DNA of 32,000 nt, taken from positions 90,001-122,000 of the forward strand of contig JBHLKY010000008.1 in NCBI GenBank assembly GCA_048886185.1. Reading direction: 5' to 3'. The translations under genes were made by a program, and so were the position numbers. Source of the stretch: Candidatus Hermodarchaeota archaeon (GTDB lineage: Archaea; Asgardarchaeota; Heimdallarchaeia; Hodarchaeales; Hodarchaeaceae). Shown here piece by piece: positions 10,481 to 19,902 of this stretch. The notes below the pieces were generated by a model that saw only the letters and a list, made by a program, of their open reading frames with translations, was not told the DNA's origin and ran no database searches. How positions within the stretch are numbered: position 1 is the first letter of the stretch; each line of letters opens with the position of its first letter.

Positions 10481-11044
10481 TCATTTCACTTCTATTTTCT
10501 TGACCTTTTGTTTAACTTTCTCGAGAATCTCATTACATACCTGAAGAGCTATTTCATGCTCTTTCTTGATACTCTTAACTTCAGAAATAATTTTCCTTTG
10601 CTCAGAGTGAGATATCCTTGTATCGAGTTGTTTCTTAATTGTATTTAAACGTGGAAAACTACTACAGTTAAAAAGTTCTCCCGACTCAGATGATTCCTTT
10701 CTTGGTTTTCTGATTAATTCAGCAACTTCGGGGAATAGGGTATAGTAAAGCCTTGGTCTTCCCCTCCCTGAGCCTGGACGTATTTTTCCGACAACTAAAT
10801 TGTGTTTCTTTAATACTTCTAAATGTCTAATAATTGATTGAGGGTGATCATCTAGTCTTTTCACTAACTCATTTACAAATCCTTCATTTAGGGCCAATTC
10901 AGCCAGCATTCTTCTGCGTGTTCGATTTGCCAATAAATAAAGAATATCATCTATCTCATCAATAGCTAAAACTTTTTTGTTCTCAATCTGATAAGAGAGG
11001 ATCTTCAGTATCAATTCGATTTCGCTTAAAGGATCTTTACTCAT
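10481..11044 (-). CDS. ArsR-family winged-helix regulator, Phr/HSR1-like heat-shock repressor
   Basis: LANRTRRRML...FVNEL...HLEVLKKHNLV...GRGRPRLYY resembles the recalled Pyrococcus Phr N-terminus. It has a C-terminal helical extension and lies in the hsp20-cdc48 gene run. Confidence 0.72.
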   Translation of the reverse strand: MSKDPLSEIELILKILSYQIENKKVLAIDEIDDILYLLANRTRRRMLAELALNEGFVNELVKRLDDHPQSIIRHLEVLKKHNLVVGKIRPGSGRGRPRLYYTLFPEVAELIRKPRKESSESGELFNCSSFPRLNTIKKQLDTRISHSEQRKIISEVKSIKKEHEIALQVCNEILEKVKQKVKKIEVK

Positions 11045-14111: not shown

Positions 14112-14750
14112 TCAATCAACCTTTACTTTCATTTCAGTTTTATCAAAAGAAGCATTTTTCTTTAATTCGACTTCAAGAACGCCATTCTTAAACTTCGCAG
14201 ATGCGGATTCAGGAAAAACAACACACGGAAGATCGAGCTCTTTGTAATATTTCCGTTTCTTATCACCAGATTCAGCCTGAATCAGTAAACTGTTTTCAGT
14301 TGCAGATAAATCAATATTCTGTTTAGAAACACCTGGAATCTCAGCTATCACCCGAATAACGTCTGTATCATCAATTATATCTACTAATGGCTCTCTTTCT
14401 AGCGATGGTTTAAAACCAGCACCACTACTAACCTTTCGTGGATTATTTCCGAATCTTTCAACATGGGGACGCCCATCAGGACCCGTTGTCATACGAAAAC
14501 CCCAAACAAATCCAGGAAATTTAGAACTATCACTTTCATCCATCAAGTCTCGAACATTGAGGCGCCGAAAAATATCCTCAATAAAATAATCCATTTGATC
14601 CCAAATGTTTTCAAAATTAAATCCGCCAAATTGATTCATAAAATGGCGAAAAAATTCATCAAATGGATTATCACGAGAACGTCGGCGAGGATGACGATCT
14701 TCATCATCATAATTGTCACCAGTGGGATCTGACATAAAATTTAACTCCAT
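14112..14750 (-). CDS. hsp20: Archaeal small heat-shock protein Hsp20
   Basis: GFRMTTGPDGRPHVERFGN, EREPLVD, AEIPGVSK and SAKFKNGVLEV alpha-crystallin motifs. The true start may be the ATG at 14735 (MSDP), which has a GGAG SD. Confidence 0.95.
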   Translation of the reverse strand: MELNFMSDPTGDNYDDEDRHPRRRSRDNPFDEFFRHFMNQFGGFNFENIWDQMDYFIEDIFRRLNVRDLMDESDSSKFPGFVWGFRMTTGPDGRPHVERFGNNPRKVSSGAGFKPSLEREPLVDIIDDTDVIRVIAEIPGVSKQNIDLSATENSLLIQAESGDKKRKYYKELDLPCVVFPESASAKFKNGVLEVELKKNASFDKTEMKVKVD

Positions 14751-14754
14751 TAAA

Positions 14755-14816
14755 TAATTGAATGGTTCAATTAAAGGAAATTAATTAAAATCACATAAAG
14801 CTTTCGCTTCATGTGA
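14755..14816 (-). promoter_or_regulatory. Putative hsp20-operon promoter (BRE/TATA-like CGAAAGCTTTATG) with two inverted repeats
   Basis: Perfect TAATTGAA-TGG-TTCAATTA at 14755..14773 near the predicted transcription start. Near-perfect TCACAT-A-AAGC-TTTC-GCTT-C-ATGTGA at 14791..14816 spans the BRE/TATA. Confidence 0.55.
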
Positions 14817-15410
14817 ATAAAAACGAATGGTTTTTTTTCTGCGATTGAAAACGAAAATTTCATCCTAATAACACTTACGTAAATAAAGAAATCCATAAAA
14901 CTTAAATTCATGAGTTATGAAATTAAATAATACTAATTTTTAAGGCATTTATAGGTTAATTTTCTTAAAAAAGCATAAAAAACAGATTAAATAGGAGGAT
15001 ATTTTTCATACAGATTCTTTTAATGTGGCTTGGTTCTTGAAACTAGTTGCTTGACACCATGATCACATTCTCAAACTACTACGTTAAAATTTTGACCTTT
15101 TGTAAACCACATAGATATATCAATTAGATATAAGGATTAAAAATCTTTTATTTCTATAAGCCACGAAGAATCTTCAAAAAAGCTTCGATTACATAATTAT
15201 ATAATGATAGCAAATCATAATATTACATACAATTACTTGGAGTACATGCCTTCAAAAAGGGAAATATGAAAAATCCTCTGAAGTCAGTATCCTATTGAGC
15301 GTTTTATAAGAATTATCAACCATGCTGAGAGTAGAAGAATCTAATAGTTGGTAGAGTGATTTATAAATATTTACATCAAGAATATAAGGAAAAATTATGG
15401 AGACACCCTT

Positions 15411-16175
15411 ATGAGTATACATAAAAGTGCTGAAGAAATTCGAAAAGTGGAGCTCAGTCTAGAAGAATTAATAAACAAATTTCAAGGCCGAGTCCAGTTA
15501 ATACGAGAAGATCTACGATCTCTTGTCACTGATATAGAATCTCTTCGAAAATATATTGATGAAAGACGACGCATGTCTAATGATTATACCAGGGAAATAA
15601 GCGATCTCACAAACGATCTCCAGACATTTCATAACGAAATCAGTCAAATCGAAAATGAAATATCCTCAATCCAAAATAATATTGATACAATTAATATCCA
15701 AGTATCTCAAAAACAATCTGATTTTTTGGCAGATAAAAATAAATTTGGAATACTGGACTCTGAAAAAACAAATCTTATGACCACGCTTCACTCATTAGAT
15801 GTGGAGCTTTCCTCTTTAGAAAATACTCGTGATGAATTAAAACCTAAGTTTGAAACCCGTATGAAAGCTATTACCAAAGAATATGACCGATTGAAAAAAG
15901 AGAAAGATTTTCTTGGTAATCGATTTCAAGCAATTCGAATCCTCTGTTCCAAAGATTACATCCAAAGTCCTGAGGTTGGATTGGTAAAATTCTTGGCCAA
16001 AAAGCCGAGTCCGAATTCTACTTTAACAGAGATTCGTTCCGCATTAGGTATGGATCTGGATACATTGAATTCGGTCTTAAATGGATTAGCAGAACGAAAT
16101 GTCCTAGACTTCAATAAATCAGCAGGAAATGTCACCCTCCTAACCAAAATTGATTTATTTGAAAAGGAGGTTTAA
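15411..16175 (+). CDS. Long coiled-coil protein with C-terminal winged-helix domain (paralog A)
   Basis: About 175 aa of heptad-rich E/K/L/I/Q sequence, then SPEVGLVKFL...TLTEIRSALGMDLDTLNSVLNGLAERNVL followed by a beta-hairpin. Confidence 0.7.
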   Translation: MSIHKSAEEIRKVELSLEELINKFQGRVQLIREDLRSLVTDIESLRKYIDERRRMSNDYTREISDLTNDLQTFHNEISQIENEISSIQNNIDTINIQVSQKQSDFLADKNKFGILDSEKTNLMTTLHSLDVELSSLENTRDELKPKFETRMKAITKEYDRLKKEKDFLGNRFQAIRILCSKDYIQSPEVGLVKFLAKKPSPNSTLTEIRSALGMDLDTLNSVLNGLAERNVLDFNKSAGNVTLLTKIDLFEKEV

Positions 16176-16177
16176 TC

Positions 16178-16912
16178 ATGGACACAGATACTTTAAGAGA
16201 AAAATTCATTAGAAGCGAAGAAGCTCTAAATCGCTTAGCAGATGATACAAAGCAATTAGTCTTCTCTCGTGTTCAGGATCTACGAGGATCTAAAGATTAT
16301 CTTGATACTCTTATCAAAGAAAAGGAAGCGGTTGATACCCAGATTACAGAACAAGAAGCTAAAATATCGTCTCTTCAGGATGAAATTAACAACCAAGCTA
16401 ACCTAAAGGACGAACTGGTTAAAAAACAAGCAAATGTAGCAAATGAATTCCAAACAAAAAAAAGTCGCTTGGAGGAAATTCAAGGGGAGAAAAACAAAAT
16501 TGCTGAAACACTTCAAATGACAAATGAGGAAATTAACAGGTTGAAATCTGAAATCTCTCAAAAAAGAGAAAAAATCGCAATCCTCACAAAGAATATTCAA
16601 GAACTTGAAATTAAGTTAAGAACTGAGATTGAGACTAAAGAAGCTGAAAAATCAGTATTAAGGAGAGAACTCGAAACTCTGAAAGCAAATAATGCAGTAA
16701 TTTCATTTTTGCTTGAGGAATCGGCAGAAGATATTCCTGAAGTAGATATTCTTGCAGCAGTTATGAAATTAGGTAAAACATCAAAAGAAGGCTTAAAAGA
16801 AACCCTTGAAGGCCAAATATCTCCAGTAATAATTACTCGCACTCTTGGTCGCATGGCAGAAAAAAATTTGCTAATTTATGACGAATCTAATGATAGAATT
16901 TCTATCCGATAA
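16178..16912 (+). CDS. Long coiled-coil protein with C-terminal winged-helix domain (paralog B)
   Basis: Same architecture: IPEVDILAAV...KEGLKETL...IITRTLGRMAEKNLLIYD. 2-nt gap after paralog A, with an AGGAGG SD. Confidence 0.7.
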   Translation: MDTDTLREKFIRSEEALNRLADDTKQLVFSRVQDLRGSKDYLDTLIKEKEAVDTQITEQEAKISSLQDEINNQANLKDELVKKQANVANEFQTKKSRLEEIQGEKNKIAETLQMTNEEINRLKSEISQKREKIAILTKNIQELEIKLRTEIETKEAEKSVLRRELETLKANNAVISFLLEESAEDIPEVDILAAVMKLGKTSKEGLKETLEGQISPVIITRTLGRMAEKNLLIYDESNDRISIR

Positions 16913-16936
16913 AGAGTTCAAGGTGATATATTCCAT

Positions 16937-17965
16937 TTGGCAGTATTAACACAAGAGAACGAATGGATATTTTATAGAACCCTAAGGTCAGGAAAGGTGC
17001 AATGTCTGGCTTGCCCCAGACATTGTCAACTTACAGATAATGAAGTAGGCTGGTGTGGAGCTAGGATTTGCAGAGAAGGGATAATAGCTCCACGTACGTA
17101 TGGTCTAATTTCATCAAAAGCAATAGATCCCATTGAAAAGAAACCACTCTATCATTTTTTACCAGGAACTGGAATTTTATCAATTGGATCTCATGGATGT
17201 AACATGGGTTGTCTCCATTGCCAGAATCACACAATTTCAACGAGCCGCGATATCTCTTATCTAAGAAAAATGATGCCAGAGGAGTTGGTACAAGAAGCTC
17301 TCAGAAAGAATCTTCCATCCATAGCATCAACTTACAATGAACCAATGATCGCTTTTGAGTATGTGCGGGATATCGCAGAAATCGCCCATAAACACAATTT
17401 GAAGATGATAGTCGTTGATAATGGATACATTACCAAGAGATTAGCTGAGAAACTAGGTCCTTTAATCGACGCAGCAAATATTGATGTAAAGGGATTCTCA
17501 TCAGAATTTTATAGAGAAATTTGTAGTTCACCATCATGGAAACCGGTATTAAGAACTTGTGAAATTTTCCATAAGTTGGGAGTCCATTTAGAGATTACTA
17601 ACCTAATAATTCCAACGAAGAATGACTCTATGGATATGATCAGAGAAATGTGTGAATGGATCTTAGATAGCTTAGATCCCAATGTCCCGTTACACTTTTC
17701 ACGATTTCATCCTGATCACAAGCTTTTAAACTTACCATTTACACCTCTTAACACATTAGAAGCTGCATATGATGTTGCAAAAGAAGTTGGATTGAATTAT
17801 GTCTATTTAGGAAATGTACAGACTCATAAAGGCAATGATACTTATTGTCACCAGTGTGGTAATCTCATAATTCAAAGAACAGGATTTTACAGAGTAAGAA
17901 TTCGAGAAATATTAAATGGGCAATGCAAAAAATGTCAGGCTCCCATTCCGGGCGTTTTCTCCTAA
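16937..17965 (+). CDS. amrS: AmmeMemoRadiSam system radical SAM enzyme
   Basis: CLACPRHC N-terminal cluster, DPIEKKPLYHFLPG, radical SAM GCNMGCLHCQN, TYNEP, SRFHP, YVYLGNV and a C-terminal CHQCG...CKKC. TTG start. Confidence 0.92.
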   Translation: MAVLTQENEWIFYRTLRSGKVQCLACPRHCQLTDNEVGWCGARICREGIIAPRTYGLISSKAIDPIEKKPLYHFLPGTGILSIGSHGCNMGCLHCQNHTISTSRDISYLRKMMPEELVQEALRKNLPSIASTYNEPMIAFEYVRDIAEIAHKHNLKMIVVDNGYITKRLAEKLGPLIDAANIDVKGFSSEFYREICSSPSWKPVLRTCEIFHKLGVHLEITNLIIPTKNDSMDMIREMCEWILDSLDPNVPLHFSRFHPDHKLLNLPFTPLNTLEAAYDVAKEVGLNYVYLGNVQTHKGNDTYCHQCGNLIIQRTGFYRVRIREILNGQCKKCQAPIPGVFS

Positions 17966-17978
17966 AATAACATAAAAA

Positions 17979-18425
17979 TTAGAACACGTTTTCCATTATC
18001 AAAAAGGGAATTTCCATAATCTTCTCATTTAAAAGCGTGAAAATCGCCAATTTAGGAGTAGATCCTTCGCCTCTATTAGAACCAATTAACCATAAATATG
18101 GATATGGCCAAAAACACATGAAATATTGATCTCTTTGTGAAGGATAAAGGCTAGCTCCTTTAGGATGACTATGAAATATCCCTACAAGAATCTCTCCCTT
18201 TTCTTCATGGATCTGAATCTCTTTGTATAATACTTCGTAATCCACAGAAAATGTAATTTCAGAATTATCTAAATTTTTCATCAAAACAAAATTGGTAATT
18301 CTGATCTGATTGTTTTCAAAGGTTCCAAATCCAAGGCCTACAATTTCATTTTTTGGATTTTCCGAAAGGAGATGCATTATCTCACGATAAACAGTCGGTG
18401 ATAACAACACTTCCTTTATCAGCAT
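17979..18425 (-). CDS. JAMM/MPN+ (Mov34) metalloprotease
   Basis: EIVG...FHSHPKGASLYPSQRD matches the E-x(n)-HxH-x7-S-x2-D JAMM motif. Confidence 0.88.
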   Translation of the reverse strand: MLIKEVLLSPTVYREIMHLLSENPKNEIVGLGFGTFENNQIRITNFVLMKNLDNSEITFSVDYEVLYKEIQIHEEKGEILVGIFHSHPKGASLYPSQRDQYFMCFWPYPYLWLIGSNRGEGSTPKLAIFTLLNEKIMEIPFLIMENVF

Positions 18426-18516: not shown

Positions 18517-19902
18517 TCAGGGATAATTATATAATATTTCATGAGAGGATAATATTGTAGCTTTGTGTCCAAGCTCCTCAAGTGCACGATAATAGGCCTG
18601 TTGAGCCATTGGTTCTCCATGTAAGGCATAAACCAAGGATGGAGAGCTATACCGAACCATATCGATTAACCCATCAATTGAAGTGTGACCTGAAAATTCA
18701 AATCTTTTTACTTCTAATGATAATTTGATGTCATAATAATCTCCAAATCCATTATCAAGTGTTATATCCGTTTTACCTGAGGCAATATCCGAGCCAAGAG
18801 TTCCCTCGACCTGATATCCGACAATGTACAACCCATTAAGAGGATCATTTCCTCCAAATCGGAGATAATCATAAACTGGCCCTCCTTCAAGCATTCCTGA
18901 AGTAGTTAGAATTATACTTGGTTTGCTTTGTGTGACTAATTTTTCACGTTTACTCCCCCTCTTTCCTTTATAAGAAACTTCGTCAACTGTTCTAAGCCCT
19001 TCATGCTCGAAAGGAGTTCTATAACCTCTTTCCTCCAATTCTATGAGAATACGTGGTGAAACCCACTTTTTATTCAGATATTTTTGATAAACTGAATTCA
19101 TATCCAAGATCATTCCATCAATATAAAGGGGAAATTTATGAAGAAAAGAATCAAAATCACTAGTAAGGTATGATTGTATTTCTTGGCTTCTTCCTAACGC
19201 AAAAGATGGAATGATTGCTTTTCCTCCGCGTGAATAACACTTTAACAAAGATTTAGTTAAATTTGACGTAGCAAGTTTCCTACTACTCCCTATATTACGA
19301 TTCGCATTCGTGGTTTCAGTTAATAATACATCAATAGGATTATCTGGATCTGGGTAAACAATAGGGTCATGATAAGGAGTTTTTGCATCATTATAGTCCC
19401 CTGTATAAAAGATCAGGGTGCCTTCCCAATCAAGGAGAATTGCAGCACTACCTAAAATATGGCTTGCATCATAAAATTCAGCTGTAATTCCAGGCGCAAC
19501 CCGAAATTTTCTATGATACTCATGTGTTTTAGTCTTCGCAAGGGCGGAATGTAAGTGAGAGATACCATAATGATGTGGTCCCTCAATTTTTAAGTGATCT
19601 TTCCAGAGAATGTCCACGATATCTTTGGTAGGGGTGGTCATATGTACCTGTTCTTTATAACCAGCCCGATATAAAGCAGGAATGTACGCAGAATGATCTA
19701 TATGAGCATGAGATAGCACCACAGAAGCAATGTCTTCACAAAATTCATCTACTCCTTCTGGTGGAGTTGATAATTTACCTGTTCTACGGGGATGAAGCTC
19801 AATACCTGCATCTAAGAGGACACGTCGGTCTTCTTCATCGGAAATCATGACACAAGATTTCCCCACTGAATCCGCTGCACCGAAAACTGTAATTTCTAGC
19901 AT
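18517..19902 (-). CDS. beta-CASP metallo-beta-lactamase ribonuclease (aCPSF2/CPSF73-like, no KH domains)
   Basis: VGKSC, SHAHIDH, ASHILGSA, YTGDY, PSFALGRSQE, TSGMLEGGP, VGYQVEGTLG, FSGH and HGE motifs. Confidence 0.9.
   Translation of the reverse strand: MLEITVFGAADSVGKSCVMISDEEDRRVLLDAGIELHPRRTGKLSTPPEGVDEFCEDIASVVLSHAHIDHSAYIPALYRAGYKEQVHMTTPTKDIVDILWKDHLKIEGPHHYGISHLHSALAKTKTHEYHRKFRVAPGITAEFYDASHILGSAAILLDWEGTLIFYTGDYNDAKTPYHDPIVYPDPDNPIDVLLTETTNANRNIGSSRKLATSNLTKSLLKCYSRGGKAIIPSFALGRSQEIQSYLTSDFDSFLHKFPLYIDGMILDMNSVYQKYLNKKWVSPRILIELEERGYRTPFEHEGLRTVDEVSYKGKRGSKREKLVTQSKPSIILTTSGMLEGGPVYDYLRFGGNDPLNGLYIVGYQVEGTLGSDIASGKTDITLDNGFGDYYDIKLSLEVKRFEFSGHTSIDGLIDMVRYSSPSLVYALHGEPMAQQAYYRALEELGHKATILSSHEILYNYP

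Follow-up and report, generated by a model that had tools for sequence, protein, structure and literature searches.

What would two adjacent genes, each encoding a long coiled coil that ends in a winged-helix (wH) domain, build together in an Asgard archaeon, and what would the product do? The question is raised by genes A (254 amino acids, aa) and B (244 aa), which lie in tandem in a 32,000-nt stretch of the genome of a Candidatus Hermodarchaeota archaeon of the order Hodarchaeales (assembly GCA_048886185.1, contig JBHLKY010000008.1, positions 90,001 to 122,000 of the forward strand; hereafter the window), archaeal in sequence and with a G+C content of ~35%. A preliminary description of this window had proposed that the pair forms an uncharacterised obligate heterodimer acting in DNA organisation, division or the cytoskeleton. 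Our comparisons across Asgard archaea point, with considerable confidence, to a parallel A.B rod of ~26 nm that carries twin wH heads and a sticky tip.

Architecture of the two subunits

AlphaFold2 monomer models, built with family alignments of 41 and 42 sequences, predict for A an uninterrupted helix from residue 5 to 180 followed by a wH domain of three helices and two strands (residues 187-243; predicted local distance difference test score, pLDDT, 87.9), and for B a helix from residue 3 to 182 and a wH domain at residues 187-242 (pLDDT 88.4). The rod thus comprises ~176 residues per chain, or ~26 nm. Rod and head are joined in both proteins by the motif E-x3-L-x6-I-x2-L-x8-PEV, which occupies the same residue numbers in A and B (E164, L168, I175, L178 and P187-E188-V189); across 11 Asgard families, represented by 41 A and B sequences, only the columns L178 and E188 are at least 90% conserved in both paralogs. 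Direct comparison of A with B by BLASTP was marginal (22% identity, E 0.001). Comparison of the family profiles with hhalign gave a probability of 96.6% (E 4.7e-10), with the PEV triplet, the junction and the heads in register; profile to profile, A and B clearly appear to be old paralogs.

Gene A stops with TAA at 16173-16175 and gene B starts with ATG at 16178-16180, leaving a gap of 2 nt, and the AGGAGG preceding B lies inside the end of A, an arrangement that would couple the translation of the two genes. Upstream of gene A, a GGAG/GAG is the sole block kept in an alignment of nine Hodarchaeales loci. Both genes are single-copy in the host genome (4.84 Mb, 96% complete). We found 72 homologs of A and 82 of B; all the named ones are from Asgard archaea, mainly from Hodarchaeales/Heimdallarchaeota metagenome-assembled genomes. 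The structural statements of the preliminary description held throughout: the open reading frames (ORFs) with their 2-nt gap and AGGAGG, a coiled coil of ~175 aa plus a C-terminal winged helix-turn-helix (wHTH) in each protein, the identical spacing of the junction motif and the tandem paralogy agree, respectively, with the sequence reading, the models, the residue numbers and the hhalign result.

The same holds for its claim that the proteins lack an ATPase and a hinge and hence are not SMC proteins. Pfam and NCBIfam scans of A and B detected no ATPase head or hinge, and the rods gave sub-threshold coiled-coil matches only, to the arms of SMC, Rad50 and ASRP. Assignment to SMC, Rad50 or archaeal SMC-related proteins was rejected, as the arm matches reached 37 bits in two models with cut-offs of 567 and 300, there is no P-loop or hinge, and the predicted helix is unbroken.

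By their sequences the heads are assigned to the MarR/TrmB type of wHTH, B more clearly than A. Among the B heads, the Pfam model MarR was matched in 20 of 28 (best E 2.9e-8) and TrmB in 17 of 28; matches of the A heads were weaker, with MarR_2 in nine of 29 and TrmB in three of 29. The B protein of Odinarchaeum exceeds the Pfam cut-offs for TrmB (26.9 bits; cut-off 25.6) and HTH_IclR (23.9 bits; cut-off 22), and NCBI annotates one ortholog as a MarR family regulator. The heads in the window fall below every Pfam cut-off: A matches MarR_2 with 16.9 bits (cut-off 27), and B has no match at E<0.05. The recognition helix of B contains a conserved S-P-V-I-I-T-R-T-L-G-R, with Arg and Lys/Arg at fixed positions in most lineages. 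Structure comparison of the heads with Foldseek and VIA-align returned a flat list of minimal wH domains (Z ~9.6) without a favourite, including IclR, MarR, Z-alpha, Rpa2, Hop2, the MCM C-terminus, cullin WHB, Vps36 and Stn1; the Foldseek matches of the A head were exclusively IclR, MarR, cullin-WHB and Z-alpha wH domains. This output confirmed the wH fold and contained no specific relative.

Only A continues beyond its head. Its residues 244-254 form an unstructured 11-residue tail in the monomer model, in which I247, D248 and F250 are invariant in Hodarchaeales and the hydrophobic-x-hydrophobic ending persists across the phylum; B lacks such a tail. This tail could add a strand to the head of the partner and may help to join the two heads. 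In addition, A residues 196-207 (window 15996-16031) form a loop, K-K-P-S-P-x-S-T, between the first two head helices; the loop is two residues longer than in other families, and in Hodarchaeales its residues K198, P199, S200 and S203 are invariant or almost invariant. The loop resembles a Ser-Pro site, and its phosphorylation is a matter of speculation.

Predicted pairing of A with B along the rod

Family-averaged hydrophobicity indicates a common heptad phase for A and B from the N-terminus to about residue 150, followed by an identical stutter. In both rods the first ~70 residues (residues 1-68 in A) and the last ~20 are conserved and the middle is variable; the smoothed conservation profiles of A and B correlate at 0.75 in the parallel orientation and at 0.06 in the antiparallel one. 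The C-terminal domain starts at residues 160-163 of both proteins in nearly all lineages, larger values arising mostly because each ORF was read from the start codon that first follows a stop. Both chains are longer together (C-domain start 194/203) in the second pair of some Lokiarchaeia (see below).

Pairing was examined in 30 cognate pairs with a charge score, defined as the number of opposite charges less that of like charges between position g(n) in one chain and e(n+5) in the other. Cognate A.B pairs, from 30 Asgard lineages, reached a mean of +4.4 per pair, against -0.26 ± 0.59 when partners were shuffled among lineages, and none of 20,000 shuffles attained the observed value. The signal was maximal without a heptad shift, at 11.1 per 100 positions, and ranged from -5.1 to +6.7 with the other shifts; the homodimer scores were near 0 (A.A, -1.8; B.B, +1.5). 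An unbiased scan of seven heptad positions at offsets from -9 to +9 (133 combinations) ranked g-to-e' (+5) at the top, with z 8.1, and d-to-e' (+1) second, with z 4.8; both are known contacts in parallel dimers. The best of ~240 antiparallel settings had z 3.6. These z values overstate independence because the lineages are related; it counts against the shuffle test, however, and the control by heptad shift draws on the same cognate pairs. A common register and inter-chain g-e' pairs, which characterise parallel two-stranded heterodimeric coiled coils, are both found in A.B, and we consider it highly probable that A and B form a heterodimer in vivo.

We also considered a complementary polar/hydrophobic core, since in the window pair polar a/d residues of one chain lie opposite hydrophobic residues of the other, and rejected it: the window pair has three shared polar layers, with 3.9 expected, and the pattern does not generalise, as polar layers across 11 lineages coincide more than expected (73 versus 54).

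Could A and B instead form separate homodimers, A2 and B2, with nothing in common but an operon? A alone has a well-packed hydrophobic a/d core, and the identical registers would also allow homodimers. However, the g-e' complementarity occurs in cognate A.B and in register only, with none in A.A or B.B; the B core contains many Lys, Gln and Arg residues at a/d positions; and the genes are coupled and strictly co-inherited one to one. We therefore regard separate homodimers as very improbable.

At the N-terminus the rod would offer more than a two-stranded interface. Over residues 7-41 of both chains, hydrophobic residues extend beyond a/d to g (fraction 0.35-0.59) and e (0.20-0.30); the fraction at g in the mid-rod is 0.02-0.18. 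The pattern is common to Hodarchaeales and other families. Since such a widened hydrophobic face is typical of bundles with more than two helices, the tip (the N-terminal 35-40 residues) probably binds a second dimer or another helical partner.

Distribution and genomic context in Asgard archaea

The A profile of Hodarchaeales matches 106 of 301 Asgard genomes. Gene A precedes gene B in all 44 pairs that could be read whole, the window included, from Hodarchaeales, other Heimdallarchaeia, Lokiarchaeia, and Odin-, Baldr- and Atabeyarchaeia. In complete loci, counted as those cut out with sufficient flank, A-like proteins have 247-266 aa, B-like proteins 242-254 aa, and the A-B gap ranges from -4 to +29 nt. 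In a maximum-likelihood tree built from 21 proteins of the upstream set and 20 of the downstream set, a single branch (support 100/99) splits A from B and their subtrees mirror each other, indicating that the duplication is older than the divergence of the sampled Asgard lineages and that the A-then-B order has never been reshuffled. The obligate heterodimer of the preliminary description is thus well supported by fixed-order co-occurrence in every complete locus read, the separate A and B clades, the common register and the g-e' complementarity, all of them properties of the sequences.

Phyletic counts were made with a profile of the B junction and head (E<=1e-8) in genomes at least 85% complete. 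It was present in 48 of the 49 genomes of the Heimdallarchaeia families f1, f3, f4, f5, f6 and f7 taken together, in 86 of 106 of f14 (Lokiarchaeia), in 7/7 of f17, 3/3 of f18 (Atabeyarchaeia), 2/2 of f19 (Baldrarchaeia), 3/4 of f8 (Odinarchaeia) and 3/9 of f27; under these thresholds it was absent from f2 (0/1), f11 (0/58), f23 (0/6) and several small families. Source names link f14 to Lokiarchaeia, f8 to Odinarchaeum yellowstonii LCB_4, f18 to Atabeyarchaeum and f19 to Baldrarchaeia, and one homolog cluster bears the label Hermodarchaeota. An f2 genome outside the profile-search sample does carry the pair (locus L025), and f11 has generic wHTH matches only. Two f11 loci (L028:2911-4686 and L052:430-2154) each have one gene for a coil-plus-wH protein of 223-246 aa and, directly after it, one for a conserved ~340-aa protein without Pfam match; in L028 the coil-plus-wH gene comes after those for topoisomerase VI B and A, both identified by eye only. 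The closed or near-closed Atabeyarchaeia genomes G023 and G012 have two full A-B pairs each (L057:2462-3987 and L058:3519-5056; the other copies are in L024 and L044), suggesting that the pair was duplicated as a unit.

No relatives outside Asgard archaea were found, in searches weak for that purpose. A full-length A+B profile compared with 1.84 billion representatives gave 58,393 matches at E<=0.001, swamped by giant coiled-coil proteins, with only ~30 further members of ~245 aa, and is uninformative on non-Asgard relatives. A word-indexed search with the full-length A+B alignment returned Asgard members plus coiled-coil noise such as M23 peptidases; in the PDB, full-length profiles found coiled-coil noise only and head-only profiles generic wHTH. 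The ESM Atlas yielded only clusters of Asgard hypothetical proteins and a weak lead (0.79-0.82) to a Bathyarchaeota cluster of 210 aa, in which 21% of members carry HTH_24. Our literature search found no paper on the A/B family. No solved relative found in these searches explains the pair.

Within the genus, all 11 loci keep the same arrangement, with cdc48 and hsp20 on the minus strand, a spacer that measures 660 bp, and then A, B and a radical SAM gene; protein identities are 47-85%. In Hodarchaeales the pair is divergent from an hsp20-cdc48 heat-shock operon. The radical SAM gene (TIGR04337, 357 bits; cut-off 220) lies 3' of the pair in these 11 loci and is absent beside it in other families; we place it and the heat-shock genes outside the core module because they are not kept beside the pair in other families. 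The window spacer (14751-15410) is AT-rich and little conserved except for a T-T-C-A-A-A-A-A-G-G-G-A-A block ~190 nt upstream of A in four loci. Rfam gave no match in 14600-17100, and the alignment of nine Hodarchaeales loci contained no conserved palindrome or operator upstream of gene A. The last gene of the hsp20-cdc48-PAC2 operon (window 10481-11044) has sub-cut-off matches to ArsR/SmtB (37 bits) and Phr (32.5 bits); the operon thus seems to carry an ArsR/Phr-like regulator of its own, which argues against A.B as that regulator. Coordinates of the pair and its parts are collected in Table 1.

Table 1. Positions in the window of genes A and B, their signals and domains, and the gene that follows them
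Feature	Position	Strand	Description	Basis
Gene A ribosome-binding site GGAG	15399..15402	+	8 nt 5' of the A ATG	Sequence
Gene A	15411..16175	+	254 aa; upstream subunit: coiled coil, wH and short tail	ORF
A rod	15423..15950	+	Residues 5-180, one continuous helix	AlphaFold2, DSSP
A junction motif	15900..15977	+	Residues 164-189, between rod and head	
A winged-helix head	15969..16139	+	Residues 187-243, H-H-H-beta-beta	AlphaFold2
A C-terminal tail	16140..16172	+	Residues 244-254, K-I-D-L-F	
Gene B ribosome-binding site AGGAGG	16165..16170	+	Within the end of gene A; 7 nt 5' of the B ATG	Sequence
Gene B	16178..16912	+	244 aa; downstream subunit: coiled coil and wH	ORF
B rod	16184..16723	+	Residues 3-182, one continuous helix	AlphaFold2
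B junction motif	16667..16744	+	Residues 164-189, residue numbers as in A	
B winged-helix head	16736..16903	+	Residues 187-242, MarR/TrmB type	AlphaFold2
AmmeMemoRadiSam-type radical SAM gene, outside the core	16937..17965	+	24 nt 3' of B, co-oriented	TIGR04337

Further downstream, the window encodes a beta-CASP/metallo-beta-lactamase protein (18517-19902) that matches aCPSF1 with 299 bits (cut-off 580) and only from model position 175 onward, and therefore appears to be a version without the N-terminal KH domains. The adjoining gene (17979-18425) encodes a JAB/MPN protein with a weak match to desampylase.

In Lokiarchaeia the primary pair has a kinase-fold gene upstream, and a second pair, A'-B', is also found (L055:3521-5241 in genome G222, L056:2314-4022 in G099 and L059:2380-4094 in G216). 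A' (283-284 aa) and B' (285-289 aa) are both ~35-40 aa longer than the primary subunits. Their genes belong to a conserved cluster, in which they are flanked by one gene for a protein of 673-730 aa and another for a longin protein of 130-134 aa (PF19036, 29.4 bits; cut-off 26.1). The larger neighbour is a P-loop protein whose L056 copy matches ORC-CDC6-like (PF24389, 40.8 bits; cut-off 27); the L059 copy has no Pfam match. Small coiled-coil proteins with the signature DWPY...KGFLS are encoded nearby. PADLOC gave no match in the cluster, the P-loop protein has no match in the host genome of the window, and neither it nor the longin protein is similar to the HerA-longin gene of the window.

Candidate functions and related systems

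We propose that the two chains form a single coiled coil, two-stranded, parallel and in register, whose C-terminal end would carry two juxtaposed MarR/TrmB-type heads, the tight translational coupling supplying both chains in equal amounts. The paired heads would hold nucleic acid, with the B head as the better-preserved binder; the A head, partly degenerate, may instead hold the B head or a protein. Binding of nucleic acid by the heads, above all by B, is favoured by their MarR/TrmB sequence type; it is plausible and not assured, given their near-neutral charge, and we put it at about an even chance. The N-terminal tip would dock on a second copy, tail to tail, to give a DNA bridge, or alternatively on another cell structure to give a tether, and the strictly conserved rod length would set the distance. 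As a whole, a bridge or tether binding DNA or another nucleic acid is a tentative proposal, possible but somewhat doubtful. We favour it over a plain regulator because of the fixed rod length and the second interaction site; a rod kept almost to the residue points to a distance-setting structural role rather than to routine regulation.

Several points weigh against this proposal. Both heads are nearly neutral, with median isoelectric points of 6.8 (A) and 6.2 (B) and a mean net charge of ~0, and the A recognition helix in the host genome has one basic residue, features that also fit protein-binding wH domains. Plain DNA binding does not require so long a coil. No neighbour is conserved beside the primary pair beyond the family level, and there is no DNA-related partner or operator-like repeat; the Lokiarchaeia P-loop/longin cluster, the only contextual hint to function, points away from DNA. 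As for the dimer itself, co-variation of the core (a/d), in hydropathy as well as in charge, gave no signal, and the predicted heterodimer rests on sequence statistics from related lineages.

The neutral heads and the poorly basic A helix would suit a protein-protein adaptor or scaffold, in which the heads bind proteins, as in cullin WHB, ESCRT-II and Rpa2, and the rod links two machines in division, the cytoskeleton or membrane traffic. Protein-binding wH domains (Rpa2, cullin, Vps36 and Stn1) are found at the same Z as DNA binders, the sticky tip is compatible with such a role, and so is the position of the longer Lokiarchaeia pair between an ORC-CDC6-like P-loop gene and a longin-domain gene. 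However, that cluster concerns the paralogous pair only, the primary pair having no such neighbours, and the B heads are nearest in sequence to DNA-binding MarR/TrmB proteins, with the R/K positions of the recognition helix kept in most lineages; we consider an adaptor rather unlikely. Those same MarR, TrmB and IclR matches, the NCBI name of one ortholog and the divergent position next to the heat-shock operon in Hodarchaeales would be expected of a heterodimeric MarR/TrmB-like transcription regulator, sequence-specific and with a long coil for dimerisation only. Dimerisation alone leaves unexplained a ~26-nm rod of phylum-wide fixed length with a conserved N-terminal tip, and the near-neutral heads, the ArsR/Phr-like gene within the heat-shock operon, the lack of a conserved palindrome or operator upstream and the turnover of neighbours between families also speak against it, so that a regulator appears unlikely.

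Constant length, conserved rod ends and a variable middle could alternatively reflect a head-to-tail polymer, like those of intermediate-filament or crescentin rods, with the conserved ends as overlap sites. The Pfam matches of the rods, 22.2 bits for Filament (cut-off 40) and 20 bits for Rod_CreS (cut-off 100), are nevertheless far under the cut-offs and look like generic coiled-coil noise, and globular wH heads on both chains are foreign to intermediate filaments; we consider a filament former quite improbable. To return to the bridge or tether, a further-reaching form of it would be an ancient, Asgard-wide, two-ended tether, with the heads on chromosomal DNA and the tip on a second dimer or on a structure of the cytoskeleton, the membrane or division, a version that we think unlikely as stated. 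Of the preliminary description, the structural half is upheld. Its functional half (DNA organisation, division or cytoskeleton) finds neither support nor refutation: the MarR/TrmB heads favour nucleic acid but are near-neutral, and no conserved neighbour points to a process.

The pair is new, assembled from known modules in an architecture not described in the literature that we found, and is conserved in at least five named Asgard classes, nearly universal in the sampled Heimdallarchaeia and apparently derived from one old duplication. Eukaryotes have their closest known relatives in the Asgard archaea, especially in Hodarchaeales, and conserved Asgard proteins of this sort are candidates for cell biology that preceded the eukaryotic cell. 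An ordinary regulator would be of modest interest. Both proteins are small, soluble-looking and easy to express, and thus amenable to direct testing.

Among known systems, the MarR/TrmB/IclR wHTH (PF01047, PF12802, PF01978 and PF09339) shares its fold with both heads and its sequence type with B. MarR proteins, however, are homodimers of ~140-160 aa in which an N-terminal and a C-terminal set of dimerisation helices clamp the wH, and TrmB has its wH at the N-terminus; A and B, with 244-254 aa, carry a ~60-aa wH at the extreme C-terminus of a 176-residue helix, and the pairing signal is between paralogs. The archaeal proteins Sso10a/Sul10a, Lrs14, Phr and TrmBL2 likewise combine a wH with a coiled-coil dimerisation helix, and the Lrs14-like chain 6cmv matches the B-head profile (E 4.5e-5); unlike A and B, these proteins form small homodimers, their wH is N-terminal, and their coil is short and often antiparallel. 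PADLOC detected no defence protein in A or B beyond matches of 16-27 bits to JetC/LmuB arms. The nucleoid bridgers H-NS/StpA and MvaT/MvaU are similar in design, being heterodimerising paralogs that oligomerise through a coiled coil at the N-terminus and bind nucleic acid with a C-terminal head. They differ from A.B in fold, size and taxa and are not homologous to it; their features serve as the working model for a tail-to-tail bridge.

The preliminary description had compared the pair with Hop2-Mnd1 and Spc24-Spc25, and these analogies concern architecture only. The kinetochore proteins Spc24-Spc25, as proposed for A.B, have a parallel heterodimeric coil, C-terminal globular heads and an N-terminal tip that joins another coiled-coil dimer; their heads are RWD domains, whereas those of A and B are three-helix, two-strand wH domains. 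The eukaryotic meiotic Hop2-Mnd1 (PDB 4y66 and 2mh2), like A.B, is a parallel heterodimer of paralogs of ~200-250 aa, each with a wH and a long coil, and its two wH domains lie side by side, as we propose for A.B. The order is reversed, with the wH at the N-terminus, and the Hop2-Mnd1 coil is broken into three zippers, whereas the A/B helix is unbroken; Mnd1 (4y66_A) matches the A-head profile weakly (E 0.094), and the Hop2 wH (2mh2), at Z 9.6, ties with dozens of other wH domains. Were the two-ended tether correct, the Lokiarchaeia A'-B' pair with its P-loop and longin proteins would be a regulated version of it, and A.B a prokaryotic functional forerunner or analogue of Hop2-Mnd1 or of the kinetochore rods.

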